The notes: generated from the sequence alone by a model not told the origin. A DNA stretch of 64,000 nt from Candidatus Calescibacterium sp. (GCA_032249135.1 JAVVGL010000008.1:3211-67210); one strand, 5' to 3'. Counted from the first letter of the stretch, positions 1-12,715 are shown. Numbers and translations: made by a program.

Positions 1-111
1 GATGATAGTATTCAAAAATTTGCTTTTAACGATGTCAAAAATAGAGCAATAGCATCATCAAGGTTTTATCTGATGCTTTTTTGTGCAGAAAAAGCAAATA
101 TATGCTATTAG
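1..111 (+). CDS. 3' end (last 36 codons) of a toxin gene that starts upstream of the window; tail paralogous to that of the 721..2067 product
   Basis: Frame 1 is open from nt 1 to TAG at 109-111 and reads DDSIQKFAFNDVKNRAIASSRFYLMLFCAEKANICY*. This aligns without gaps to the last 36 aa of the 721..2067 protein (DGNIQKDAHWEVKSKATDSTKYHLDLFCKGLGGICY*), about 16/36 identical including LFC and the terminal ICY. The same 19-nt stop/start junction follows. Confidence 0.6.
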   Translation, partial: DDSIQKFAFNDVKNRAIASSRFYLMLFCAEKANICY

Positions 112-167
112 GATTTTTTATACTTTCTTATTTCCAATATTTTTGCCTCATGAGAGAAGAAGCATAG
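102..167 (+). pseudogene. Decayed duplicate of the 5' end of the small paralog gene (21-codon remnant)
   Basis: ATG at 102 overlaps the toxin stop exactly as at 2058 and starts MLLGF like paralog 2. A T6 run replaces the T5 run, and the frame ends at TAG 165-167. The functional-looking start is re-created at 170. Confidence 0.35.
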
Positions 168-169
168 GT

Positions 170-694
170 ATGTTATTGTTATTAGGATTTTTAACATTCG
201 TGTGGATTTTTGGAAATTCATCTGAGTCAAGAAATTTTAGTTATACCTTGGCGATTAATCCTTTACCTGTTCTAGTGGGTATCACACGTGAAGCATCTAT
301 TGTAATTTGGATTCCAGGAATAAATTTTGAGTCAAAACTTAAAGAGAATTTTTCGCTGAATTTTGAATTAAATAATGTGTTTTTAATTTTCCCCTTTGAA
401 CTAGAAGTAGGAGTTAGGGAATATTTGAAGGGAGGAGGTATTAAAGGTTTTTATCTTTATCAAGGAATAGCAGGTACGCTTACCTATTTTTTTAATGGTA
501 AATTTGAAGTTATACCAAACTTAACACTGACTTTTGGGGATAAATATATTTCTCGGAAAGGTTTTACCTTAGATCGTTTTATAGGTTTAAAAATAGTGTA
601 TGGTGGAGGTTTTTTCAGCGAATATTTGTCTATCGGATCTCTTAAGTTTGGAATTCTGCCAGCCATAGGTTTATATTTAGGTTATAGTTGGTAA
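170..694 (+). CDS. Small beta-barrel-like secreted/membrane protein, paralog 1 of 3 (candidate immunity protein)
   Basis: ATG at 170 gives the hydrophobic N-terminus MLLLLGFLTFVWIF. It shares with 2058..2534 and 2599..3102 the blocks INPL, PGINFE, FSLNFELNN, E-x-G-x-REYL, GFYLYQG, KGFT-x-D and the C-terminal LGLYLGYSW. The ORF-track GTG at 83 would read through the decayed duplicate. Confidence 0.6.
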   Translation: MLLLLGFLTFVWIFGNSSESRNFSYTLAINPLPVLVGITREASIVIWIPGINFESKLKENFSLNFELNNVFLIFPFELEVGVREYLKGGGIKGFYLYQGIAGTLTYFFNGKFEVIPNLTLTFGDKYISRKGFTLDRFIGLKIVYGGGFFSEYLSIGSLKFGILPAIGLYLGYSW

Positions 695-720
695 GTTTTA
701 TGCAGAATGATTAAACTACT

Positions 721-2067
721 ATGATGGATTGGAGAGGAGTGCCAATAGCTATATACGGCGAATTAGGGAAGGAGATATGGAGAGGGGAATTTGGTCCATT
801 TGGAGAGCCATTGTATGAAAGAGGTGTTGTAAGCAACTACATTCCATTCAGATTGTATGGTATGTATAAGGATATGGAGACGGGTTTATATTATAATGTG
901 AGGAGGTATTATGATTGGAGAGTAGGAAGGTATTTGCAACCTGACCCTGTTTCTGACTTGAATTTGTATGTGTATGGGAGTAACTCGCCGTATGATGCAG
1001 TTGATCCGGTGGAAATGTTTGAAGTAGGAGTGAAATGGAGCCCCTATTTTGTGCCGCTTTTGCATGTTGGCGTTGATCCTAACCATGAAGAAATTACAGA
1101 GAGTGCAATTAGTGAACTTTATGGAGCATATCCAGGAAAATATTCAAAATTATACCAATATGGCTTTAGGTTAGATGATTGGAGAGGAGTGTATTTTAGG
1201 ATTGGCACTTTGACTTTTCAATGTAGAACTGGTACAGATGTTAGACCTGATGCAGATAGGGTAGCGCAAGGAACAAATATAGCGGATTGCCTCTTTTTAA
1301 ATGACTCCTCTTACCATTGTGATAACAGCAATTTTGATGGATGCGATGAAAAAGGGTTTATGGTAATGAACCCGGTCAGCAATGGTTTAGTAACTTGCCA
1401 GTGTAGTGGTGGAGGAGGCAGTGGAGGCGGTGGAGGTAGGGGAAGAGGAGGAGGTGAAGGAGGTGGTGCAGGTTGTTCAGTTGCTAAACAAAGGTTGAAG
1501 AATAAAGGTTATGACCGATGTCAATATTTTTTCCCTTCTAGACCCGAGGAATGTAAGTGCGTTTGTTCTTTTAAGGTAGCTATCTCCCCTGATATTAGGG
1601 ATTTGGGGCAAATGGATTACGAAAAACTCGGAAGGTTACTTCATCCTATACAGGACTTTTGGTCTCATTCCACAGCTATATATGTTCCTGGTTGTAAGAC
1701 GAAAAAATGTGTTAAAAAAGTTCTTGGTGTATGCCTTGATGAGGAATGTGCAGAGTATTATAGGAATTATAATTGGACCAATCTTGACATACCTATGAGA
1801 ACTCAAGCAGGAAATGTAGGTCTCAGGACAGGTTGGTTTGGGGCTAATGGATGGTCTGCCTTAGAAGATGTTGCTTGTTTATGGCCCCCATGTAATGCGC
1901 ACTGTATGTTAAATAAAGATGATGGTAGTTTTGATAGGGATGATTTTAGCCCGTGTGACGGAAACATTCAAAAGGATGCTCACTGGGAAGTAAAAAGCAA
2001 AGCAACAGATTCAACGAAATATCATTTAGATCTGTTCTGTAAAGGACTTGGAGGAATATGCTATTAG
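721..2067 (+). CDS. Orphan Rhs-core C-terminal fragment fused to a Cys-rich HET-C / Zn-phospholipase-C-fold-like toxin domain
   Basis: The N-terminus has GLYYNVRRYYDWRVGRYLQPDP...NLYVYGSNSPYDAVDPVEM, matching the Rhs repeat-associated core end (YYxxRYYDPxxGRF..DP..NLYxY..N.P...DPxGL). No YD-repeat shell is present. The tip carries HEEIT, YHCD, LLHPIQDFWSHS, AHCMLNKDD, 21 Cys and a poly-Gly insert. Confidence 0.65.
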   Translation: MMDWRGVPIAIYGELGKEIWRGEFGPFGEPLYERGVVSNYIPFRLYGMYKDMETGLYYNVRRYYDWRVGRYLQPDPVSDLNLYVYGSNSPYDAVDPVEMFEVGVKWSPYFVPLLHVGVDPNHEEITESAISELYGAYPGKYSKLYQYGFRLDDWRGVYFRIGTLTFQCRTGTDVRPDADRVAQGTNIADCLFLNDSSYHCDNSNFDGCDEKGFMVMNPVSNGLVTCQCSGGGGSGGGGGRGRGGGEGGGAGCSVAKQRLKNKGYDRCQYFFPSRPEECKCVCSFKVAISPDIRDLGQMDYEKLGRLLHPIQDFWSHSTAIYVPGCKTKKCVKKVLGVCLDEECAEYYRNYNWTNLDIPMRTQAGNVGLRTGWFGANGWSALEDVACLWPPCNAHCMLNKDDGSFDRDDFSPCDGNIQKDAHWEVKSKATDSTKYHLDLFCKGLGGICY

Positions 2068-2534
2068 GATTTTTAATTCTTTTACTGATATCTGAGACTT
2101 CAGAAAAAAGGTTTGGTCATAAATACTCACTGAGTATTAATCCTTTGGCTGTTTTTATTGGAGTTGCAGGTCATGCGGGGGGAATAATTTTACCAAATCC
2201 TGGAATAAATTTTGAGGCGAAAGGAGGAGGTAATTGGTCATTTAACTTTGAAATTAATGCAATATTTTTTATTCCTACTGAAATAGAGGTGGGGATTAGG
2301 GAATATTTAAAGAAGGAAAAAGAATTTAGAGGATTTTACCTTTATCAGGGATTAGCTTTTGGATGGACAAATTTCGTATTTGGTTTATATATACCAAACC
2401 TAATTTTGGCGGTTGGCTATAAGAATGTTTCTGCAAAAGGTTTTACCATAGACCCAATTTTAGGTTTAAGAGCAGTATATACTGCTTTTGTAGTATTACC
2501 AGTTTTGGGATTATATTTAGGTCGTACTTGGTGA
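2058..2534 (+). CDS. Small beta-barrel-like protein, paralog 2 of 3 (candidate cognate immunity of the 721..2067 toxin)
   Basis: Its ATG overlaps the toxin 3' end by 10 nt (ATATGCTATTAG). It carries the family blocks INPL, PGINFE, FNFEINA, EVGIREYL, GFYLYQG, KGFTID and ends LGLYLGRTW. Confidence 0.65.
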   Translation: MLLGFLILLLISETSEKRFGHKYSLSINPLAVFIGVAGHAGGIILPNPGINFEAKGGGNWSFNFEINAIFFIPTEIEVGIREYLKKEKEFRGFYLYQGLAFGWTNFVFGLYIPNLILAVGYKNVSAKGFTIDPILGLRAVYTAFVVLPVLGLYLGRTW

Positions 2535-2598
2535 GTTTTGTATAGGAGATACGGTACGTTAGAGTATAGTTTTTGAGTGAATTGAAAGCGATAAATTT

Positions 2599-3102
2599 AT
2601 GCTTCTAATTTTAATATTTGGGTTAATTTCAGAAGTTCGGGATGGAGACTTAGAAATGAGATATAAGTGCACTATATCTACTAACCTTTTTTCTATTGTT
2701 TTTCTGGAGGCAGAACATGGGGTTTTACCTCTTCCTTCTCCCGGGATAAATTTTGAGTTAAGGATTTCAAAGAAGTTTTCATTTAACTTTGAACTAAATA
2801 ATGTACTTTTTGTTCTTCCCCATGAGGGAGAATTAGGTATCAGGGAGTATTTAGGGAAGAAAGATTTTGAAGGTTTCTATCTTTATCAAGGGTTTGCAAT
2901 TGGATTACCTATATCTTACCGTCCTGATAGATCTTTTATTCCAACTGATCCCAGTTTAGTATTAATAGCTGGTCATAAATCTATTGAAGATAGTGGATTT
3001 ACAATTGATCCTTTTTTGGGAGCAAAGATATTTTATGCGACGGAGGAAAAAAGGATAATTTCTACCCCAGCATTAGGTTTATATTTAGGTTATAGCTGGT
3101 AG
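2599..3102 (+). CDS. Small beta-barrel-like protein, paralog 3 of 3
   Basis: Same family blocks (PGINFE, FSFNFELNN, LGIREYL, GFYLYQG, SGFTIDP, ALGLYLGYSW). It is diverged from paralogs 1 and 2 (roughly 35-45% identity by eye). Confidence 0.6.
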   Translation: MLLILIFGLISEVRDGDLEMRYKCTISTNLFSIVFLEAEHGVLPLPSPGINFELRISKKFSFNFELNNVLFVLPHEGELGIREYLGKKDFEGFYLYQGFAIGLPISYRPDRSFIPTDPSLVLIAGHKSIEDSGFTIDPFLGAKIFYATEEKRIISTPALGLYLGYSW

Positions 3103-3450
3103 ATTACGAATTGATTATGTTTCCATTATACATTTGGAATTTACATTCCTACGCAAAACTGTTATTTCAATATCTTTGGTAGCTTACCTTATGAAGATAA
3201 TAAGTTTGCAATTGAACTTGGGTTCTTTATTGTGTCTTTCATTTTATAGGGTGCTGTTGGGAGGTTCCGAGCCTTTTGTCCTTGTACCTCGTCTTCGCTT
3301 TCAAAGAAAGGTAAAGGCGGAAGATAGTGAAAGATGTATCAGCAGGGGGCAAGTTGAAGTCAGCAATAAAGTGGGTCAGCAGAGACAATTTTGTAAATAA
3401 AAACCAGTAACAAACAAAATGAAAAAGATAAAAATAAAATTATTTGATAC

Positions 3451-5034
3451 ATGAGGAAATTAAAGTGGAACGGATGGGGATATGAGGGAGAGGAGTTCCC
3501 GCAAGATAGGGTAAAAAAAATTATTGATATATTGCAATCTTTTTTGGGAATTTCAGAGGAAGATTTCTCTCCATCTATAAATCTTGAACAAATAAATTTG
3601 CCAGAAGCAAAAATAGATTATCAATTGCTTCAGAAAAAATTGAAAGCATCTTCTGTTAGTGTTGAAAAGTACGATAGGGTTTTAAATTCATCTGGTAAAA
3701 GCTATAAGAACCTTGTGAGATTAAGAAAGGGTACTATAAAAAAATTTCCAGATGCAGTTGTATATGTAAAAGATAAAAACGATGTTTTTGAAATTCTCTC
3801 TTTCTGTGAAAGTGAAAATGTTGCATGTGTTCCTCGTGGTGGTGGAACAAGTGTCGTCGGGGGAGTTGATGTTGAAGAAATATCATCTCCCGTTTTGGTT
3901 TGTGATTTGACTTATCTTAACAAAGTCATTGATGTAGATGTTAGATCTTTGACGGCTCGGGTTCAGGCAGGGGTGAGAGGACCTCACCTTGAAGAACAAC
4001 TCAGAAATTATGGTCTTGCCCTGAGACATTATCCTCAATCTTTTCATTTTTCTACTTTGGGTGGATGGATAGCTGCAAGATCTGCTGGGCATTTTTCGTC
4101 AAGATACGGAAAAATAGAAGATATGATACAAAGCATTGAAGTTATAACTCCTCGGGGGGTTGTAAAAAATTTTGATGTACCATCAACTGCTTGCGGACCA
4201 GATATACCTCGTACATTTGCTGGTTCTGAGGGTATTTTAGGTATAATAACAGAAGTTGTAGTGAAGTGCCATAAAATACCTACGAAAAAATTTTCAACAG
4301 CTTTTGTTTTCCCTGATTTTGAAACTGCGTGCGATGCAGCAAGAAAAATAGTTCAATCTGAAATATTCCCTCCACTTTTGAGAATACTTGACGAAAGAGA
4401 GTACATGATATCTTCTATCCTTTCAGGTAGAACATATAATGGCGGAGCCCTTTTACTTTTGGGGTTTGAATCAGATGATGAAACGGAAGATATTGTACGA
4501 GCTGAGTTTGAAAAGGCATCGCAAATGTGTATAAAATCCGGCGGAAAAGATGAAGGAAAAATGAGATTTGAAGATTGGAAAAAGGAGTATTTTGAACAGC
4601 CTTATCTTCGCGATGTACTTTTGGATTTCTGTATAGTTGTTGATACTCTTGAAACAGCCACAAGTTGGTCTAACCTTATGAACCTTTATAGAAGAGTAAA
4701 AGAAGCTATAGAGCAAGCTATTTTTTCCGAAACTTTGGGTGGTGTGACTTGTCGTGTAACTCATGTTTACACAACTGGGGCATCTTTGTACTATTCTTTT
4801 TTTGCAAAAGCTCAAAAAGGAAAAGAGGAGGAGCTTTGGTGGAAAATAAAAAAAGCCGCCTCTGATGCTATATCAAACTATGGAGGAACAATCTCTCATC
4901 ATCACGGGGTAGGGAGGGACCACAAGATTTGGGCTCAAAAAGAGCTGAAAGATTCTTTGATTTTTCTCAAAACTTTGAAAATATCTCTTGACCCAAAAAA
5001 TGTTATGAATCCCGGAGCTGTTTTTGATATGTAA
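3451..5034 (+). CDS. FAD-linked oxidase, alkyldihydroxyacetonephosphate synthase (AGPS)-like
   Basis: N-terminal KWNGWGYEGEEF, the PCMH-type FAD motif VPRGGGTSVVGG, and C-terminal ISHHHGVGRDH...LDPKNVMNPG closely mirror the RWNGWGY and HHHGVG hallmarks of alkyl-DHAP synthases. Confidence 0.75.
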   Translation: MRKLKWNGWGYEGEEFPQDRVKKIIDILQSFLGISEEDFSPSINLEQINLPEAKIDYQLLQKKLKASSVSVEKYDRVLNSSGKSYKNLVRLRKGTIKKFPDAVVYVKDKNDVFEILSFCESENVACVPRGGGTSVVGGVDVEEISSPVLVCDLTYLNKVIDVDVRSLTARVQAGVRGPHLEEQLRNYGLALRHYPQSFHFSTLGGWIAARSAGHFSSRYGKIEDMIQSIEVITPRGVVKNFDVPSTACGPDIPRTFAGSEGILGIITEVVVKCHKIPTKKFSTAFVFPDFETACDAARKIVQSEIFPPLLRILDEREYMISSILSGRTYNGGALLLLGFESDDETEDIVRAEFEKASQMCIKSGGKDEGKMRFEDWKKEYFEQPYLRDVLLDFCIVVDTLETATSWSNLMNLYRRVKEAIEQAIFSETLGGVTCRVTHVYTTGASLYYSFFAKAQKGKEEELWWKIKKAASDAISNYGGTISHHHGVGRDHKIWAQKELKDSLIFLKTLKISLDPKNVMNPGAVFDM

Positions 5035-5159: not shown

Positions 5160-7319
5160 ATGGTTAGAAAAGAAAAAATATTTCTTTTTTCTACTATATT
5201 TTTTATTTTTCCCCTTTTTTTATTTTTCGTTTTTCCATTTTATTCTTATTCCTCCAAAACTTTTGAGTTAAAGATTGCAGAAGCGACAGAATTTTTGAAT
5301 AAAGGTGATCTTATAAATGCATATGTGAGTTTTTCAATAGCCTATGAGTACGCAGAAAATACCAGACAAAAGGCTGATGTAATGGTAAAACTCGGAAATA
5401 TACTTTTCAAATTGGGAGATACATTCGCAGCAGAAAAAACATATGAGAAAGCCCTAACTCTGGATCCCGGAAATTTTGAGATTTTAAAAAAGGTCATAGT
5501 CAGTAAGGCTGAAAATCTATCCCCGGATTTCAAAGCTTATCTTAAAAAAATCCCAAAAGATAAAATAGATTCTGAGATTTTATATTACTGGGGAAAATAT
5601 GTCCTTTTGGCTGAGAAAAATCCAAAAGAAGCGTGTAATATTTTAGATTCTGTAAGGAAAGAATCTGAATTTTTTTATAGAGCTTCTTATCTTTGCGGTA
5701 TAGTCTCGGTTATGAAGGGCGATAGGGATGATGCGGTGAGGAGATTCGAGAGCGCTTCATTATCTCCTGATATAACACTTCGGGACTATTCTCTTCTTGC
5801 ATTGGCGAGAATATATTCCGACTCCGGATATTTTCAGAAGGCTTATCATTATTATTCCAAGATTACAGAGGGTTCTCCTGTTTTTTATGATGCAAAATAT
5901 GAAGTTTGTTGGGTTTTGTATGGGCTTGAAAAATATGGGGAGGCGCGCGAATGCGTTGAATATTATAGAAGGTCAGCCCCTAAATCACATCTTACAAAGA
6001 GAATAGAAGTTCTTTCAGCTTTTTTGACGATGAATGAGGATTTAGTTGGTGCTCTACTTACTTTCACATTTGTCTCTGATTCCGCTGAAATGATATTATC
6101 AAAAATAGTAGAAGTGGAGAGAATGCCGCTAAAATTTTGGGAGAAAGATTATATAGATTATTTTAGCGCACACGACCCAGATATAGTATTATATATACAA
6201 GCCTTCCCTGAATATAAAGATTATCTAAAAAAGAAAACATACATAGAGCAGGTGAAAAGTGAGATAAAATCTATAATTCAAGATATGCAAAAGGTAGGTA
6301 GTATGTCCGTTATCGTTGCTGATAAATCACTTAAAAAGTATTTTGAAAGGGTATGGTTTGTTCAGGAGAGAATAATAAATTTGATTTCCTCTTTTATTGA
6401 AAATAGTATGGAATATGGAGAAAAAAATGTTTGGACCACTCTTTATTCTCTTTCCAAAGAATTAAGAAAACTTGATTTTAAGGCAAGAGAGCTCACCGCA
6501 CTATCAGCTGTAAAATCTCTGGAATTGTATCGTAAAGGCGAAGAGTTCAAAAATTGGGAGAAGAAACTCGAAGTCTACAGAGGAACGATGAATTATACTA
6601 TTGATGAAATTAGGAAATTAGTAGATTATCAGAAAAAATCAGCAAGCTATTTTGTATCGCTTGTAAATGAAATATCATCTGAACATGATAGAGGAGAAAA
6701 TACTAAACTCAAAGAACTCATTCAATATTTTGGAACTTCTCAAGATGTTTTTTTTGATTTTGCAAACTTGTGGCAAGATCTTATACAATCTCTAAATAAA
6801 TTTCTTCTTGTTCAAGAAAGAAAATTGAGGGGTATGTATTTTGTCCTTGATAATTTCAGCCGTTATCTTGATGATTTCAAGAAATCTCTTGTGAGATATA
6901 TTGTCCTCTCTAAACTCAGGCGTGAATTCTTTGAAATATACGCCCTCGCTCAGTACGGTTTTATTGAGGTTGCTTGGATCATCAAAGAGAGCGAATCCGA
7001 AGCATTAAATAGAATGCACTCTATAAGACTTAGGGAAGAGGACAATATCAGAACTAATTTCTCAAAAGTTCAAGATGAATTAAATAAAATAGAAATTCAA
7101 TCAAAGTCAGTAAAATCTGATTCTGTTTTTGAGGAGGAGGTCAGAACTTATGATTCTATATTAAGTGAAATCATAAAAAAAGTGGATACTTCTTCTAATA
7201 TTTTTTCACGTGGGAGCACAATCACTTTTACTCCTCCTCAGGATTTATACCAAATTATTAGCGAATTAGAGAAAAAGTCAAAAGAAGAAACACAAAAAAA
7301 GAAAAAGGGAAGAAAGTAG
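5160..7319 (+). CDS. Membrane-anchored TPR plus long coiled-coil protein
   Basis: ATG at 5160 lies about 10 nt after AAAGTGAGGT (the track start at 5151 is TTG). It has an N-terminal hydrophobic helix, TPR-like repeats (GDLINAYVSFSIAYEY, AEKTYEKALTLDPGN), and a K/E-rich helical C-terminal half. Confidence 0.6.
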   Translation: MVRKEKIFLFSTIFFIFPLFLFFVFPFYSYSSKTFELKIAEATEFLNKGDLINAYVSFSIAYEYAENTRQKADVMVKLGNILFKLGDTFAAEKTYEKALTLDPGNFEILKKVIVSKAENLSPDFKAYLKKIPKDKIDSEILYYWGKYVLLAEKNPKEACNILDSVRKESEFFYRASYLCGIVSVMKGDRDDAVRRFESASLSPDITLRDYSLLALARIYSDSGYFQKAYHYYSKITEGSPVFYDAKYEVCWVLYGLEKYGEARECVEYYRRSAPKSHLTKRIEVLSAFLTMNEDLVGALLTFTFVSDSAEMILSKIVEVERMPLKFWEKDYIDYFSAHDPDIVLYIQAFPEYKDYLKKKTYIEQVKSEIKSIIQDMQKVGSMSVIVADKSLKKYFERVWFVQERIINLISSFIENSMEYGEKNVWTTLYSLSKELRKLDFKARELTALSAVKSLELYRKGEEFKNWEKKLEVYRGTMNYTIDEIRKLVDYQKKSASYFVSLVNEISSEHDRGENTKLKELIQYFGTSQDVFFDFANLWQDLIQSLNKFLLVQERKLRGMYFVLDNFSRYLDDFKKSLVRYIVLSKLRREFFEIYALAQYGFIEVAWIIKESESEALNRMHSIRLREEDNIRTNFSKVQDELNKIEIQSKSVKSDSVFEEEVRTYDSILSEIIKKVDTSSNIFSRGSTITFTPPQDLYQIISELEKKSKEETQKKKKGRK

Positions 7320-7333
7320 GGGGGTAGATTGTT

Positions 7334-10300
7334 ATGTGTAGATTTGGTTGGAAGATAGTTTTCTTCATTTTCCTTTCATCATCTTTTTTTATTCCTTGTG
7401 GGGTTTTCTCTCAGCAGAGATCGGAAAAACAAATTGGAAATGCAAAAAAGGATGAGCTTGTGGATAAGCTCAGGGAATTGAGAGACAGGTACTCGCCGGA
7501 CTTTTCAGAATATGTAATTGAGAAAGAAATTATTTATGCTAAATCAATTTCAGTTTATGCTGATAGGTTTGAAAAAATAAGGTCCATTATGAAAGAACTT
7601 TTGGATGTCCGCGCTGGTATTGAAATGACAAAAATATTAGATTATTTCTCTTCCTCCATGGCACCATTTTTGGAAGTTGAAGACCTCAGGAGGGAAGAGC
7701 TCCTCAGCTCACTTGAAAGATATATCAAACTATTTTCAAACTCCCCGCTTGCTCCGTACGCTATTTTAAGATATGCTGAAATACTTTATGAAAAACTATC
7801 ATATGAGTATATTCGGGAATATGAGAGAGCAATCATTTTGGGAAATCCTTTACCTCAGAAGAATTACTATCCTGTCGTTAAAGTATATGAAGATTTCTTG
7901 AAAAAATACCCAGATTTTCCAAGGCGTGATATTGTGATGTATCTTGCTGGATACATTCTTGAAGAAATGGATATGGCAGACGAAGCTGTGGAAAAATATT
8001 TTTCCCATTTGTCTAAAATTAGAGCCTCCCCTTTCGCTCCAGAAGCTGCCATGCGTTCTGGAGAATACTATTTCAAAGTAGGTGAACTGGAAAAAGCAGA
8101 GGAGTATTACATTTTAGTGCTTGATTTCCCAGAAAGCCCATTTTATCCGAAAGCTCTGTATAAGCTCGCATGGACGTACTTCCGACGAGGAGATTATTCT
8201 TCAGCCATAGATTATTTTATTGAAACAATAGAAGCATCATATGGGAGGGAAGCATCAGATGAAAAAGTCAACCTTGTAAAAGAATCTATGGATTACATTA
8301 TTTTCTCAATTGCAGAGCTTGGTGGATTTGATGCTATTGAAAAATCAAGAAAAGAAGTAGTACTTTCTGTACTGCTCAAAATCTATCCAATTGTATCCCA
8401 ATTTCATGATGAACCAGAAGCTTTTATCCTTGAAGCTCAGGGAAAAGTTTTCCTTGAACAAGGAAAGTATCCGGAAGCTATTTTATCTTTCAAGAACCTT
8501 ATAGACAGATTTTATCTTTCTCCAAGGTCAATAAATGCAGCCTTTGGTCTTTTTGAGGCTCTGAAAAAGTCAGGTGATATATCTTCTGCTGTATCCTGGC
8601 AGATCAAGATGGTAGAGAAATGGGGACCCGGTTCGGAATGGGCGCGCAAAAATCCCGAAGAGGCTAAAAAATATGCACAAAAGCTTGAAAGCGGGCTATT
8701 GGAAGGAGCAAAATATTATCACTCAAAAGGTATCCTTGATCAGGCGGAATCTGCATATTTACTTTTCCTCAAACTCTTCCCGGATTCTGAGTTTTCAGTC
8801 GAAGCTCAATTTCTTCTTGGCGAAATATATTTTCAGCAGGGGAAATTTTCCGAAGCATTCAAATATTACAAATTGAATGTTGAAAATGTTAATGTAAAAC
8901 AGAATAAGTTCCTCCAAGATGCTGCATGGGGTATGGTTATTTCTGCTGATGAGTTGCTCAAAGCTGGTGAAAAAGATGCGGGAGAAAAATTAAAAAGCGC
9001 GGCGTTTCTGTACGAAAGGCTTTTCCCTCTTGACAGAAGAGTTCCTGTTGCTTTATATAAAGCTGCGAAAGTCATATCGGCAGAAGGGAAAAAAGACGAA
9101 GCTCTATCTATGTTCTCAAAAATAATAGAAAGGTATCCCGGTTCAGAAGTCGTTGCAGATTCTATGCTTGAGATCTTGAAAATATATGTGGAGAAAGCCG
9201 ATTTTAAAAAGGTCCTTGAGTTTTCTATTTCCGCAAGACAGCGTACAGATATATTTTCACAGGATGATATAAACTACATAAACAGCACCGGAGCAAAGGC
9301 TCTTTTCTCCATAGCATTAGATTATGAAAAAAATAAGAACTTCAGCGAAGCAATTTCTCGCTATCTCCAAGTCCCCATTCTTTTTCCTAATTCTGATCTT
9401 GTAGATGAAGCACTATACAGAGTTATCATGATATACTATGATCTTAAAAAGTTTGACGAGGTTCTAAAATATTCTGGTGAGTTTTTGGAAAAATTTCATC
9501 AATCTGAATTAAGATATGATATTTTGTATGTTAGAGCGTCCGCTCTTTCAAGTCTTTTCTTGTTTGATCAAGCGCTTGAGGTTTTTATAAAGCTCGAAAA
9601 AGATATTAAAAACAAAAAGAATTTATCAGAAATAGAAAAAGATATTCTCAGGAAAACCATTTTATCAGTAGTTTCAATTTATGCTGGGCTTGGCAAATTT
9701 GAGGAGGCTGCGGAATGGACATTAAAATACTATGACGAATTTGGAAAATCAGAAAAAGATCCTCTCATTTATATAAGGAGGGCTGCCGACCTTTATGAAA
9801 AATCCGGCAACATACAAAAAATGAGGGAACTTCTTTCAAATTTCATAAAGGAGATGGAGAAGCAAAAAAGAGCAAACTCATATGATGTTTTGTATGCAAA
9901 ATATAAGATTGCAAAATCTTTTGAGAAATCAAATCCAGCCGAAATGGAGAAAATTTTCTCTGAAATTATAAATACATGGCCAAAACTCTCGGAAGAAGAT
10001 AGAAGGAAATCATTGAGTATATATGCGGAAGCTAAATTTCATTTCGCTAAAAAAACTTTTGAAGAGTATAGAAAAATAAGAATAACAGGTGATGAAAGAA
10101 AGAAACAGTTGGCAGATAAGCTGAAAAAGAAATCGGAGATGCTCAAAAAGGTTCAATCAGAGATGGGAGATATAGCAAAACTCGGGGATCCTGAATGGTC
10201 ATTCGCAGCTATCTTTTACATGGGATTTGCTTTTCAGGATTTTGCTGATATGCTGATCAATTCTCCTCTCCCACCAGAAATAAAATCTATAAGAGATCCA

Positions 10301-10750
10301 GAAGAGAGAGCATTAGCAGAAGCTGTTTATAGGGAGGAGTTAGAAAAGCAAGCTTTCCCTCTCGAGGACAATGCAATAAAAATTTTCTCAGGGGCTATTG
10401 ATAAAATAAAACAGCTTGGAGTAAGAAATGAATGGACAAATCTTATATTCAAGCATCTGAAGATGTTAGATCCTCTTGCACCTGTTGAGATAGAAGATGA
10501 TAGAATTCAAGATGCTAAATTTGTTCTCTCTATGAGATCAGAGACTATACCACCGGTGGTTGAGGAAAAAAGAGAAGAAAAAACCCTGTTTGCAAAAAGG
10601 AAGGATATATACCTTGCGAGTTCCCCGGAAGTCCTCAGAGTTTCTACTCTTGATGGCATTTTCCAAAACTTCTTTCAAGGATATTTTATCTTTGAATCAG
10701 ACGGAAAATTGCTTTATATTAACTTTGATAATGTAAAGGCGAATAGATAA
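7334..10750 (+). CDS. Very large secreted multi-TPR protein (BamD/YbgF-like repeats)
   Basis: 1138-aa ORF with a signal-like N-terminus. It contains many repeats of the type PFYPKALYKLAWTYFRRGDYSSAIDYF and EAQFLLGEIYFQQGKFSEAFKYY. Confidence 0.6.
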   Translation: MCRFGWKIVFFIFLSSSFFIPCGVFSQQRSEKQIGNAKKDELVDKLRELRDRYSPDFSEYVIEKEIIYAKSISVYADRFEKIRSIMKELLDVRAGIEMTKILDYFSSSMAPFLEVEDLRREELLSSLERYIKLFSNSPLAPYAILRYAEILYEKLSYEYIREYERAIILGNPLPQKNYYPVVKVYEDFLKKYPDFPRRDIVMYLAGYILEEMDMADEAVEKYFSHLSKIRASPFAPEAAMRSGEYYFKVGELEKAEEYYILVLDFPESPFYPKALYKLAWTYFRRGDYSSAIDYFIETIEASYGREASDEKVNLVKESMDYIIFSIAELGGFDAIEKSRKEVVLSVLLKIYPIVSQFHDEPEAFILEAQGKVFLEQGKYPEAILSFKNLIDRFYLSPRSINAAFGLFEALKKSGDISSAVSWQIKMVEKWGPGSEWARKNPEEAKKYAQKLESGLLEGAKYYHSKGILDQAESAYLLFLKLFPDSEFSVEAQFLLGEIYFQQGKFSEAFKYYKLNVENVNVKQNKFLQDAAWGMVISADELLKAGEKDAGEKLKSAAFLYERLFPLDRRVPVALYKAAKVISAEGKKDEALSMFSKIIERYPGSEVVADSMLEILKIYVEKADFKKVLEFSISARQRTDIFSQDDINYINSTGAKALFSIALDYEKNKNFSEAISRYLQVPILFPNSDLVDEALYRVIMIYYDLKKFDEVLKYSGEFLEKFHQSELRYDILYVRASALSSLFLFDQALEVFIKLEKDIKNKKNLSEIEKDILRKTILSVVSIYAGLGKFEEAAEWTLKYYDEFGKSEKDPLIYIRRAADLYEKSGNIQKMRELLSNFIKEMEKQKRANSYDVLYAKYKIAKSFEKSNPAEMEKIFSEIINTWPKLSEEDRRKSLSIYAEAKFHFAKKTFEEYRKIRITGDERKKQLADKLKKKSEMLKKVQSEMGDIAKLGDPEWSFAAIFYMGFAFQDFADMLINSPLPPEIKSIRDPEERALAEAVYREELEKQAFPLEDNAIKIFSGAIDKIKQLGVRNEWTNLIFKHLKMLDPLAPVEIEDDRIQDAKFVLSMRSETIPPVVEEKREEKTLFAKRKDIYLASSPEVLRVSTLDGIFQNFFQGYFIFESDGKLLYINFDNVKANR

Positions 10751-10784
10751 TTTATTATAATAAATAATTGTTTTCAGAAATTGT

Positions 10785-10840
10785 AAAATTTATTTAGACG
10801 GATTTTGTTTTTAAAATTTGTTTAGACGAATTTTATTTTG
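10785..10840. repeat. Two adjacent copies of a 28-bp direct repeat upstream of the mltD-like gene
   Basis: aaaatttatttagacggattttgttttt (10785-10812) is followed immediately by aaaatttgtttagacgaattttattttg (10813-10840), differing at 4 of 28 positions. It ends 12 nt before the ATG at 10853. Confidence 0.6.
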
Positions 10841-10852
10841 GAATAAAAGAAG

Positions 10853-12715
10853 ATGAATTTTTTAAAAAAATTTCTGAAATTTATTCCTTGCACATTTTTT
10901 TTATTTTCCCTTGTCCATTGCTCATCATTCCCTTTAATCTCGCCGAAGAAAAAAATCAGTATTTCAGAGGTACAAGAGCAAATTTCAGATAAATCTAATA
11001 AATCCGAAAATTATGGAAAACCAATTATTGACCTAACAAAAAAAATGGACCAGGAGATGTGGTCCTATGAGGAAATTCCGTTTACTCCCTCTGACCAAGA
11101 TGAACCTGTAATTTTACTTGAAGAGGAACCGGAAGAATGGGAAATTGATGAGATAGATAGATCGTTCCAGAGAGCTTTAACACAACCATTTCCAAAATCT
11201 ATAACGAAAGTAGAAAAATATTTTGTAAGAGGTTTTGGATACTTTAATATACCTGTTGAGCTTAATGAATATGTTGATTACTATATTTATCTTTTTACTG
11301 AAACTAAATTCAGACAACATCTTGAAAAATGGCTTAGGAGATATTTTAAGTACGAAAAGGTGATAAGAGATATAATTAAGTCTTATGGCTTGCCAGATGA
11401 CCTTATTTTTGTTGCAATGGCAGAATCTGGATTTTCAACTCGTGCGGTCTCTCCTATGAGTGCAGTCGGACCATGGCAATTTATAGAAGAAACTGCAAGA
11501 AGATATAAGCTCAAAATTGATTTGTGGGTTGATGAAAGAAAAGACCTGATAAAATCAACTCACTCTGCTTTGAATTATCTCAAAGACCTATATGATATGT
11601 TCGGAGATTGGTATCTAGCTTGGGCTGGCTATAACGCAGGAGAAAAGAGGATAGAAAAAGCAATTGAAAGGGCAGGAGGTAAAAAAGATTATTGGTATTT
11701 TGTAAAAAGAGGTCTTATACCTCGGGAAACTCAAGGATATGTCCCAAAAATAATAGCTCTTGCGCTTATAACAAAAAATCTGGAAAAGTTTGGATTCTCA
11801 AAAGATGATTTCAAAGATGAAAATAAGTTTGAGTTTGATACGGTAAAAATATCAAAGCAAATAGATATTTTTTCTCTCTCTAAAATATGTGAATGTGATG
11901 TTATAGATTTGTGGGAGCTTAATCCTTCTCTTCGCCTCCCAGTTACTCCTCCCTATGAATTTGAGTTGAAGGTACCAAAAGGTAAAGGTAAACTTGTTGA
12001 AGAAAGATTGAAGTTTTTTGAAGCCTTTGCCACTCGCTTTTATCCAGCGGTAAGACATTCTTTCTCACCGGTGCCAAAAGATGATTACCAGAAAAAAGTT
12101 TTAGGTGGATGGCTTTACATAACTCCTATAAAAGATATTAGCGGTAAAGAGCAAATCATAAGCTATGTATCTTTGCAACAAAATTTGAGTTCAGAAGATC
12201 CCTTTCTTGACGATTTAAAAGAATCTATGGAAAAGGGAGAAACTTTTATTCTACCAGTTTATGTTTATATTAAACCTTTCATACTCTATAAGGTGAGGAA
12301 AAAAGTGGAGTCTTTAAGCTCAATTGCTTTACGATTTCAAGTTCCAGTCCAAGAGATTAAGAGGTTAAATGGAATTAGAGGGAACAAAGTTTATAAGGGA
12401 AAAGTTCTGAAAATTCCAACTCATAATTTCAGCTACGCTTCTCAACCAGCAAAAAATTCAAAGTATTATAGTTCAAGGAATTCAGGGTGGAGCAATACTG
12501 TTATTGTGAGTCAAGGAAAGCAAAAACAAGTGAATATATCAAAATTTTATCAGCCTACTAAAAACACTATTATAAGACACAGAGTAAAAAAAGGTGAAAG
12601 CTTATTTTTAATATCAAAAATGTACGGGGTTGAAATACAAAAGATAAGGGAATTGAATAGATTGAGTGGAAACAGAATCTATCCAGGTCAGGTCCTTCTC
12701 ATTCCAGTAAACTAA
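10853..12715 (+). CDS. mltD: Membrane-bound lytic murein transglycosylase D-like (SLT domain plus two LysM domains)
   Basis: SLT motifs MAESGFSTRAVSPMSAVGPWQFIEETA and AGYNAGEKRI. Two C-terminal LysM-like units (YKVRKKVESLSSIALRF...VLKIP and HRVKKGESLFLISKMYG...VLLIPV). Signal/lipoprotein-like N-terminus. Confidence 0.8.
   Translation: MNFLKKFLKFIPCTFFLFSLVHCSSFPLISPKKKISISEVQEQISDKSNKSENYGKPIIDLTKKMDQEMWSYEEIPFTPSDQDEPVILLEEEPEEWEIDEIDRSFQRALTQPFPKSITKVEKYFVRGFGYFNIPVELNEYVDYYIYLFTETKFRQHLEKWLRRYFKYEKVIRDIIKSYGLPDDLIFVAMAESGFSTRAVSPMSAVGPWQFIEETARRYKLKIDLWVDERKDLIKSTHSALNYLKDLYDMFGDWYLAWAGYNAGEKRIEKAIERAGGKKDYWYFVKRGLIPRETQGYVPKIIALALITKNLEKFGFSKDDFKDENKFEFDTVKISKQIDIFSLSKICECDVIDLWELNPSLRLPVTPPYEFELKVPKGKGKLVEERLKFFEAFATRFYPAVRHSFSPVPKDDYQKKVLGGWLYITPIKDISGKEQIISYVSLQQNLSSEDPFLDDLKESMEKGETFILPVYVYIKPFILYKVRKKVESLSSIALRFQVPVQEIKRLNGIRGNKVYKGKVLKIPTHNFSYASQPAKNSKYYSSRNSGWSNTVIVSQGKQKQVNISKFYQPTKNTIIRHRVKKGESLFLISKMYGVEIQKIRELNRLSGNRIYPGQVLLIPVN

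Follow-up and report, generated by a model that had tools for sequence, protein, structure and literature searches.

An Rhs array in Candidatus Calescibacterium with HET-C-like toxin tips and predicted outer-membrane barrel partners

Results

Organization of the array

We analysed a 64,000-nucleotide (nt) stretch of DNA from Candidatus Calescibacterium sp. (GCA_032249135.1 JAVVGL010000008.1:3211-67210), referred to here as the window. Its first 3102 nt hold the 3' end of one putative toxin gene, an orphan cassette in which a piece of Rhs core is joined to a second toxin tip, and three small genes. The features are listed below, with open reading frame (ORF) lengths in amino acids (aa) and profile scores from a hidden Markov model (HMM) of the small-protein family:

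1..111, + strand: 3' end of the upstream tip-bearing gene; last 36 codons and stop, HET-C-like tail ...LFCAEKANICY
100..167, + strand: relic junction; 19-nt ICY-stop/MLLGF junction (100-118) and a 21-codon dead ORF from ATG 102
170..694, + strand: small gene 1; 174 aa from ATG 170, small-family HMM 212.6 bits, E = 5e-64
721..2067, + strand: orphan cassette, whole ORF; 448 aa, Rhs core piece and tip
721..1017, + strand: 5' part of the orphan cassette; terminal Rhs core piece, aa 1-99, TIGR03696 match
1018..2067, + strand: tip of the orphan cassette; 350 aa, HET-C/VWA7_N-like domain, 21 Cys
1084 (H), 1315-1323 (HCD), 1642-1668 (HxxxDxxxH) and 1900-1920 (H..NKD), + strand: codons of the tip motifs, located from alignments
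1405..1473, + strand: Gly-rich low-complexity insert SGGGGSGGGGGRGRGGGEGGGAG, separating the two halves of the tip
2058..2534, + strand: small gene 2; 158 aa, ATG 10 nt inside the 3' end of the tip
2599..3102, + strand: small gene 3; 167 aa, the second small gene of the cassette, small-family HMM 255 bits

Nucleotides 1-108 translate as DDSIQKFAFNDVKNRAIASSRFYLMLFCAEKANICY, followed by a stop, and this product matches the tip profile over its final 35 positions (E = 6e-11), so that the claim of the initial annotation that nt 1-111 encode a toxin tail paralogous to that of the 721-2067 product holds. Very probably it is the main Rhs gene of the locus that ends at nt 111. The three small ORFs had also been called paralogous, and they are: their pairwise identities are 41-50% and their alignment has 51 invariant columns. 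The base composition of the region is native, and a promoter and terminator scan of nt 1-3500 returned nothing above background. An exact look-up of the 448-aa product in public proteins gave no match because public gene calls begin at Met48, and the public copy of the window's contig (JGI 3300045867), which begins 840 nt inside the window, added no upstream sequence. Between small gene 3 and a gene for a flavin adenine dinucleotide (FAD)-linked oxidase lie ~350 nt (3103-3450) that contain no convincing gene.

Both toxin 3' ends had been described as overlapped by the ATG of a small gene through a shared 19-nt junction. The 19-mer ATATGCTATTAGGATTTTT does occur in exactly two copies in the 64 kb, at 100-118 and 2056-2074, where chance would give ~0.11 matches even with 3 mismatches tolerated, and at the second cassette the overlap is as described, with ATG 2058 of small gene 2 overlapping the toxin stop (TAG 2065-2067). 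At the first cassette, by contrast, ATG 102 opens a frame other than that of small gene 1 and meets a stop after 21 codons (MLLGFFILSYFQYFCLMREEA, then stop). The start of small gene 1 that is homologous to the family, MLLLLGF, lies at ATG 170, 58 nt past the toxin stop, and its start motif is duplicated at 177-194; the frame itself is open from GTG 83 (83..694). Since ATG 102 leads into a dead frame and small gene 1 starts at 170, overlapping coupling is present in the window only at the second cassette. The same relic arrangement at the 102 ATG is kept in a sister locus, L008. We also considered the 19-nt repeat as a functional element and rejected this, paralogy of the two overlapping coding ends being sufficient to account for the copies.

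A full-length Rhs gene in related loci

The RHS repeat-associated core model TIGR03696 scores 53.1 bits (cutoff 32.5) on residues 26-96 of the 448-aa product, and no YD shell lies upstream of this core within the 721-2067 ORF, exactly as had been proposed from the sequence at first reading. The family profile matches the C-terminal plugs of solved type VI Rhs proteins, TccC3, YenC2, Tse5 and teneurins, with E values down to 9e-11. The tip begins at about residue 101 of the window orphan.

In 19 related loci the long gene always comes first and is cut by the contig, and the later copies all begin ~50-130 residues before the tip; at least nine such orphan cassettes are found within 19 kb in L002. 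This arrangement bears out the idea that 721-2067 is a displaced tip lying downstream of a full-length rhs gene. Locus L008 is colinear with the window, at a DNA identity of 97-100% over 1-700, 68-90% over 701-1600 and 89-100% over 1601-3105; the homology to the L008 array, which is longer, ends abruptly at 3105, and the L008 small genes follow in the window's order (158 aa, then 167 aa). The long L008 protein, P0018, has a tail identical to the nt 1-111 product (99% identical in DNA) and, although cut by the contig edge, extends for at least 586 aa and carries shell-proximal Rhs sequence that is never found in orphans. Recovered with the upstream sequence of P0018, locus L013 contains a complete 1801-aa ORF. 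Its N-terminal region is Ig-like, RHS_repeat is matched at 38.7 bits (cutoff 22), the core is the same and the tip belongs to the same family; two small genes follow it. The same long frame is present in L015, L017, L018 and L019, with YD-type sequence upstream in L015, L017 and L018. The upstream gene, which the initial annotation had marked for checking, is thus very probably of Rhs/YD type, judging from L008 and L013, and there is little doubt that the locus has an Rhs polymorphic-toxin architecture; an Rhs array with orphan cassettes is a known kind of architecture.

Neither PAAR nor VgrG appeared among the Pfam matches of the full-length Rhs ORFs (L013 and L019) or of nine L013 neighbours, or in precomputed matches for the first 11 kb of the window contig. 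The array flanks differ among contigs (ExbD, CstA, FAD oxidase), and there are therefore either several array loci or repeated truncations.

Two features of L013 were noted in passing. A run of nine G residues (L013:6809-6817) lies where a 273-aa ORF (6003-6824), signal-peptide/lipoprotein-like and with a weak DUF7305 match, and the Rhs ORF (6881-12286) overlap in different frames; a one-base change would fuse the two, and the tract is either an error in assembling the homopolymer or a slipped-strand switch that turns the Rhs protein on and off. Between its YD repeats and core, the same Rhs protein has a segment of ~300 residues (~1000-1330) that lacks YD character and has no Pfam match save weak teneurin YD-shell matches, and which may be an inserted domain.

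The tip is a HET-C/VWA7_N-like domain

The tip has ~35 relatives at 90% clustering, all from hot-spring metagenomes, one of them named Candidatus Calescibacterium. When a tip-only profile was run against 1.84 billion representative proteins, 26 were matched, and the only distant relatives among them were proteins of 180-480 aa and one animal VWA7-type protein. These distant relatives pass the Pfam thresholds for VWA7_N and/or Het-C, and some also match Zn_dep_PLPC weakly (E = 0.009-0.05). Alignment of the tips with this VWA7_N/Het-C-passing group by hhalign gave a probability of 99.4% and E = 3.8e-21 over 208 columns that span both halves of the domain, and sub-threshold VWA7_N matches are seen in 30/34 tips. 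A bridge from the tips to Pfam VWA7_N and Het-C was provided by stand-alone secreted HET-C/VWA7_N-like proteins of Leptospira (L010:9839-10615, L011:9833-10612 and L012:9779-10603; 257-275 aa), the tip's nearest relatives in cultured organisms; they adjoin an AcrB-type efflux pump gene, and no Rhs or small barrel gene is found there. In a scan of one genome per species only these Leptospira relatives were recovered, and no Calescibacterium copy of the tip.

The Tox-HET-C signature consists of H, [DE], HxD, HxxxDxxxH and Nxx[DE] (Zhang et al., 2012; PMC3482391). Residues H24/E25, H101-C-D103, H210xxxD214xxxH218 and N300-K-D-D of the window tip fit this signature, and in 14 diverse tips they are invariant except for K301 (at least 90% conserved) and the second Asp. 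The invariant motifs of the family, HEEIT, HCD, HxxxDxxxH and H..NKD, are all intact in the window tip. The homology to HET-C is in our judgement highly probable, and the view that neither family at the locus could be named with certainty is thus overturned for the tip, which by profile comparison is a divergent HET-C/VWA7_N-like domain, while it stands for the small proteins. From remote homology, a metal-dependent phosphoesterase activity of the zinc phospholipase C or S1-P1 nuclease type is predicted for the tip. Sequence-profile searches of the PDB with the tip and with the Leptospira-type family gave nothing meaningful, and by this measure there is no solved relative.

A structure model of the tip from AlphaFold2 (AF2) has a predicted local distance difference test score (pLDDT) of 77 and a predicted template-modelling score (pTM) of 0.77, with pLDDT <50 over tip residues 137-167. 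The Gly/Pro-rich insert is the hypervariable segment of the family, 23 residues long in the window and up to ~150 in relatives, and the Gly-rich segment aligns as an insertion relative to the Leptospira-type proteins. Cysteine makes up 6.0% of the window tip (21 Cys), and family tips hold 16-28; 34 other window ORFs average 0.94% (maximum 2.33%), and the figure for the Rhs shell is 0.63%. From this high Cys content the site of folding and action of the tip is probably extracytoplasmic, on or through the envelope of neighbouring cells.

The small proteins are predicted outer-membrane barrels

The small-protein family comprises 61 clusters, all from hot-spring-type samples like those of the tip, and it has no match in Pfam, NCBIfam or PDB sequence searches beyond one member's weak similarity to DUF3575 (E = 0.0011); it is an undescribed, lineage-restricted family. 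The AF2 model of the small gene 2 product (pLDDT 76, pTM 0.71) shows an N-terminal helix followed by long strands, and its best Foldseek matches are Ail, OmpX, the OmpA transmembrane domain, OmpW, PagP and NspA (TM ~0.5, probability 1.0), with no lipocalin in the top 50. The C-terminal residue is Trp in 78 and aromatic in 83 of 86 unique sequences. The strands are amphipathic and 10-14 residues long, with the polar face more conserved than the hydrophobic one (entropy 1.00 vs 1.46). Indels occur only before strand 1 or in four loops opposite the termini, whereas the three turns on the terminal side never vary in length, and the variable parts would, on the model, be surface-exposed loops. The proteins contain 0-1 Cys. 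It is likely from these features that they are integral, 8-stranded outer-membrane barrels.

A more conventional arrangement would make the small proteins periplasmic immunity factors, as soluble lipocalin-like barrels that the N-terminal helix anchors in the inner membrane and that would neutralise a tip acting in the periplasm, as Tli proteins do for Tle phospholipases. The N-terminal hydrophobic segment, modelled as a helix and without a basic n-region, would be consistent with such a tether, no Pfam outer-membrane family is matched apart from the one weak DUF3575 similarity, and the periplasm would suit a phospholipase-like, Cys-rich toxin. Yet the top structural matches are all integral outer-membrane barrels, the strands have 10-14 residues, and a conserved polar face with a freely varying hydrophobic face is the reverse of what a soluble barrel would have; the aromatic C-terminus is that of substrates of the barrel-assembly machinery, and the near absence of Cys also speaks against this arrangement. 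We regard the periplasmic alternative as quite unlikely.

Linkage, co-variation and mosaic tips

To define linkage we used complete tips only, from the 19 related loci (26 unique cassettes). One or two small genes directly follow every complete tip on the same strand, and the 10-nt overlap of tip and small gene seen at 2058-2067 in the window recurs in many L002 cassettes. The term 'classic' toxin-immunity coupling, used when the locus was first described, fits this constant pairing but not the nature of the partner, a predicted outer-membrane barrel. Small gene 1 is a candidate immunity partner of the upstream tip, and small gene 2 the candidate cognate partner of the orphan tip, both belonging to the predicted barrel family. 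Tips with the tail ...AEKANICY precede the small gene 1 class in four unique cassettes elsewhere (items 1, 9, 12 and 22) and a different small-gene class in L016 (item 20). Across the set, identity of the first small gene correlates more closely with that of the C half of the tip (Mantel r = 0.70) than with that of the N half (r = 0.52; p = 5e-4).

The window tip is itself a natural chimera. Over the N half, identity is 81% with the L019 main gene and 46% with the L008 orphan; over the C half it reaches 88-89% with the L008 orphan, whose adjoining small gene is 97% identical to small gene 2. This mosaic, seen when window 701-1600 is compared with L008:2350-3240, points to recombination within the toxin domain, at or close to the Gly-rich insert. 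A second chimeric tip is present in L002, and in both chimeras the small gene follows the C half.

Whether small paralogs occur genome-wide without toxin neighbours had been raised as a possible objection. Members of the small family were found only in cassettes, decayed cassettes or orphan pairs, the latter two being typical fates of immunity genes. In two Calescamantes single-cell genomes (GCA_000404605.1 and GCA_000404685.1; L023:7868-8556 and L024:214-902) a frameshifted small-family gene stands before what is left of a tip tail (27 residues), amid unrelated housekeeping genes and far from any array. Downstream of a DEAD/ResIII helicase gene, L020:8001-9098 (also L021 and L022) holds a conserved pair of 167 and 171 aa, with no tip or tip remnant and in identical sequence on 14 contigs; it is either an orphan pair or a housekeeping paralogue. 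We considered whether the distant members in housekeeping contexts point to a normal outer-membrane protein family, which would weaken the case for immunity, and rejected this, taking L023/L024 as a decayed cassette and L020-22 as an orphan pair.

The barrels might instead be accessory surface partners of the toxin, serving as a docking or anchor site for the tip or Rhs protein of the producing cell, or as a polymorphic receptor by which the tip would recognise its target cells in a kin-recognition pair, with true immunity absent or encoded elsewhere. That their variability sits in predicted surface loops, like that of receptors exploited by contact-dependent toxins, is in keeping with such a role, as is the lack of any outer-membrane barrel immunity protein in the literature searched or in the 2012 catalogue, where Tox-HET-C has no assigned immunity family (PMC3482391). 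But a receptor for the cell's own toxin beside every silent cassette, with no other protective gene there, would be self-harming; the retention of small genes after loss of the tip, in orphan pairs and decayed cassettes, is the pattern expected of immunity genes; and an 8-stranded barrel is too narrow for the export of a 350-residue domain. An accessory role is accordingly unlikely.

A further view holds that the array is not antibacterial at all, the tips being secreted scavenging or host-directed phosphoesterases and the diversification of the locus having nothing to do with competition among bacteria, or that the window copy is a non-functional remnant. The stand-alone secreted relatives in Leptospira, which have no partner gene, would fit such a view, as would the shortness of the window array, its relic start and the Gly-to-Glu change at its cleavage motif. 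Against it, the Rhs core fusion, the orphan recombination arms, the strict co-varying pairing and the mosaic tips together form a polymorphic toxin-immunity signature, and the family-invariant catalytic-motif residues are all intact in the window tip. Either version seems very improbable.

Discussion

The explanation that we favour, and consider reasonably probable, is that the window opens inside an Rhs polymorphic-toxin locus with HET-C-like cargo, whose outer-membrane barrel partners are the cognate immunity proteins. Gene architecture, the Rhs core, HET-C homology, strict linkage with co-variation, and the predicted barrel fold are all directly supported.

The host would be a Calescibacterium-like hot-spring bacterium of the candidate phylum Calescamantes. 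A long YD-repeat Rhs protein (~1800 aa in related loci), encoded just outside the window, would enclose the C-terminal tip in its shell; it may be fused to a signal-peptide/lipoprotein-like leader and exported by Sec, as the frame change at the G9 tract in L013 might suggest. Self-cleavage after DPxGM would free the tip, which would then act on the envelope of neighbouring cells. The orphan cassette 721-2067 would be silent, its ~100 core residues being retained as a recombination arm, and the tip could be replaced by homologous recombination, either across the core that the copies share or, inside the tip, at the low-complexity insert. The cognate barrel would protect kin, with surface loops that bind or exclude the matching tip, mainly by way of its variable C half. 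Taken separately, barrel-mediated immunity has in our view about an even chance of being correct, and we propose more tentatively that these proteins form a new class of immunity protein, in which the hypervariable surface loops of an integral outer-membrane barrel would catch the cognate HET-C-like tip at the cell surface.

A number of points weigh against this explanation. Toxicity, substrate, extracytoplasmic action, outer-membrane location and immunity are properties that we infer. The window tip scores 19.6 bits on VWA7_N, where the cutoff is 27.5, and gives no Pfam Het-C match; a Foldseek search of the PDB with its AF2 model found no match, not even phospholipase C or P1 nuclease, so that the enzymatic class is assigned from remote homology and from a borderline profile match in the literature. 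Thermophiles can keep disulfides in the cytoplasm, and Cys richness is no proof of an extracytoplasmic site. The barrel prediction is of moderate confidence, as the pLDDT of 76 conveys, and in most family members the N-terminal hydrophobic segment is the one without a basic n-region mentioned above. Physical adjacency alone could give the co-variation with the C half; a small gene that is 71-73% similar follows a tip only ~42% similar, and elsewhere a related tip is followed by an unrelated small gene. Finally, the window copy has peculiarities of its own. The coupled start of its first cassette is a relic, and the copy may be partly decaying; the orphan reads DPVEM (1009-1017) where the family has a near-invariant DPxGM, with Glu in place of a Gly conserved in at least 90% of relatives (alignment column 402), and if its tip were swapped into the main gene this might impair release.

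Rhs loci with orphan rhs-CT/rhsI modules in E. coli, Dickeya, Salmonella and Serratia (Poole et al., 2011; PMC3150448) resemble the Calescibacterium array in that the core ends in DPxG(L/M) and is followed by a variable tip, orphans retain 3' core sequence that serves as a recombination arm, each tip has its small gene, and tips are mosaic. They differ in that the tips here all belong to one HET-C-like family per array and are not unrelated toxins, and in that no PAAR/VgrG context was seen here and the full-length gene may bear a Sec/lipoprotein-type leader; the partners here are predicted membrane barrels, those of the rhs-CT/rhsI loci small cytoplasmic proteins. The tip shares the ordered motifs H, E, HxD, HxxxDxxxH and NxxD with Tox-HET-C (PMC3482391), Het-C (PF07217) and VWA7_N (PF25107) but falls below both Pfam cutoffs, has ~21 Cys and carries the Gly/Pro-rich insert inside the domain. 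In the 2012 catalogue Tox-HET-C appears without an immunity family, and RHS is not among its associated repeats (PMC3482391).

The Tle/Tli pairs of type VI systems, with their envelope-acting, lipid-directed toxin and exported, envelope-located immunity protein, offer a functional analogy only: the folds are unrelated (Tle proteins are alpha/beta hydrolases or phospholipase D enzymes), Tli proteins are soluble or lipid-anchored and not transmembrane barrels, and Tle toxins are delivered by the type VI system. With OmpX, Ail, the OmpA N-domain, NspA, PagP and OmpW the small proteins share the predicted fold, size, terminal aromatic residue and near absence of Cys, as well as short turns of fixed length on one side and long, variable loops on the opposite side, although there is no detectable sequence similarity and the genes here lie inside toxin cassettes and diversify with them. 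We know of no such cassette-linked diversification in OmpX/Ail-type families.

In the literature that we searched, no barrel-type immunity protein and no Calescamantes Rhs system has been described. Three aspects of the locus, absent from that literature, appear new: Rhs arrays whose tips all diversify within one HET-C-like family, a candidate family of immunity proteins for HET-C toxins and, most of all, a candidate immunity partner that is predicted to be an integral outer-membrane barrel.

HET-C domains link bacterial toxins, fungal heterokaryon incompatibility and the vertebrate VWA7 protein. To our knowledge no structure has been solved for them, no activity as bacterial toxins has been demonstrated and no immunity partner is known, and we know of no cultured members of the Calescamantes and of essentially no functional genetics in the phylum. 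The locus supplies dozens of natural co-varying tip/partner pairs, chimeras included, for specificity mapping and activity tests. If immunity is indeed conferred by the barrels, protection would take place at the cell surface and not by enzyme inhibition inside the cell, which would be a different logic of self-protection. Surface interception would in turn imply that the Rhs cargo, coming from outside, attacks the outer membrane or enters through it, and these barrels would be the first immunity family assigned to HET-C toxins.

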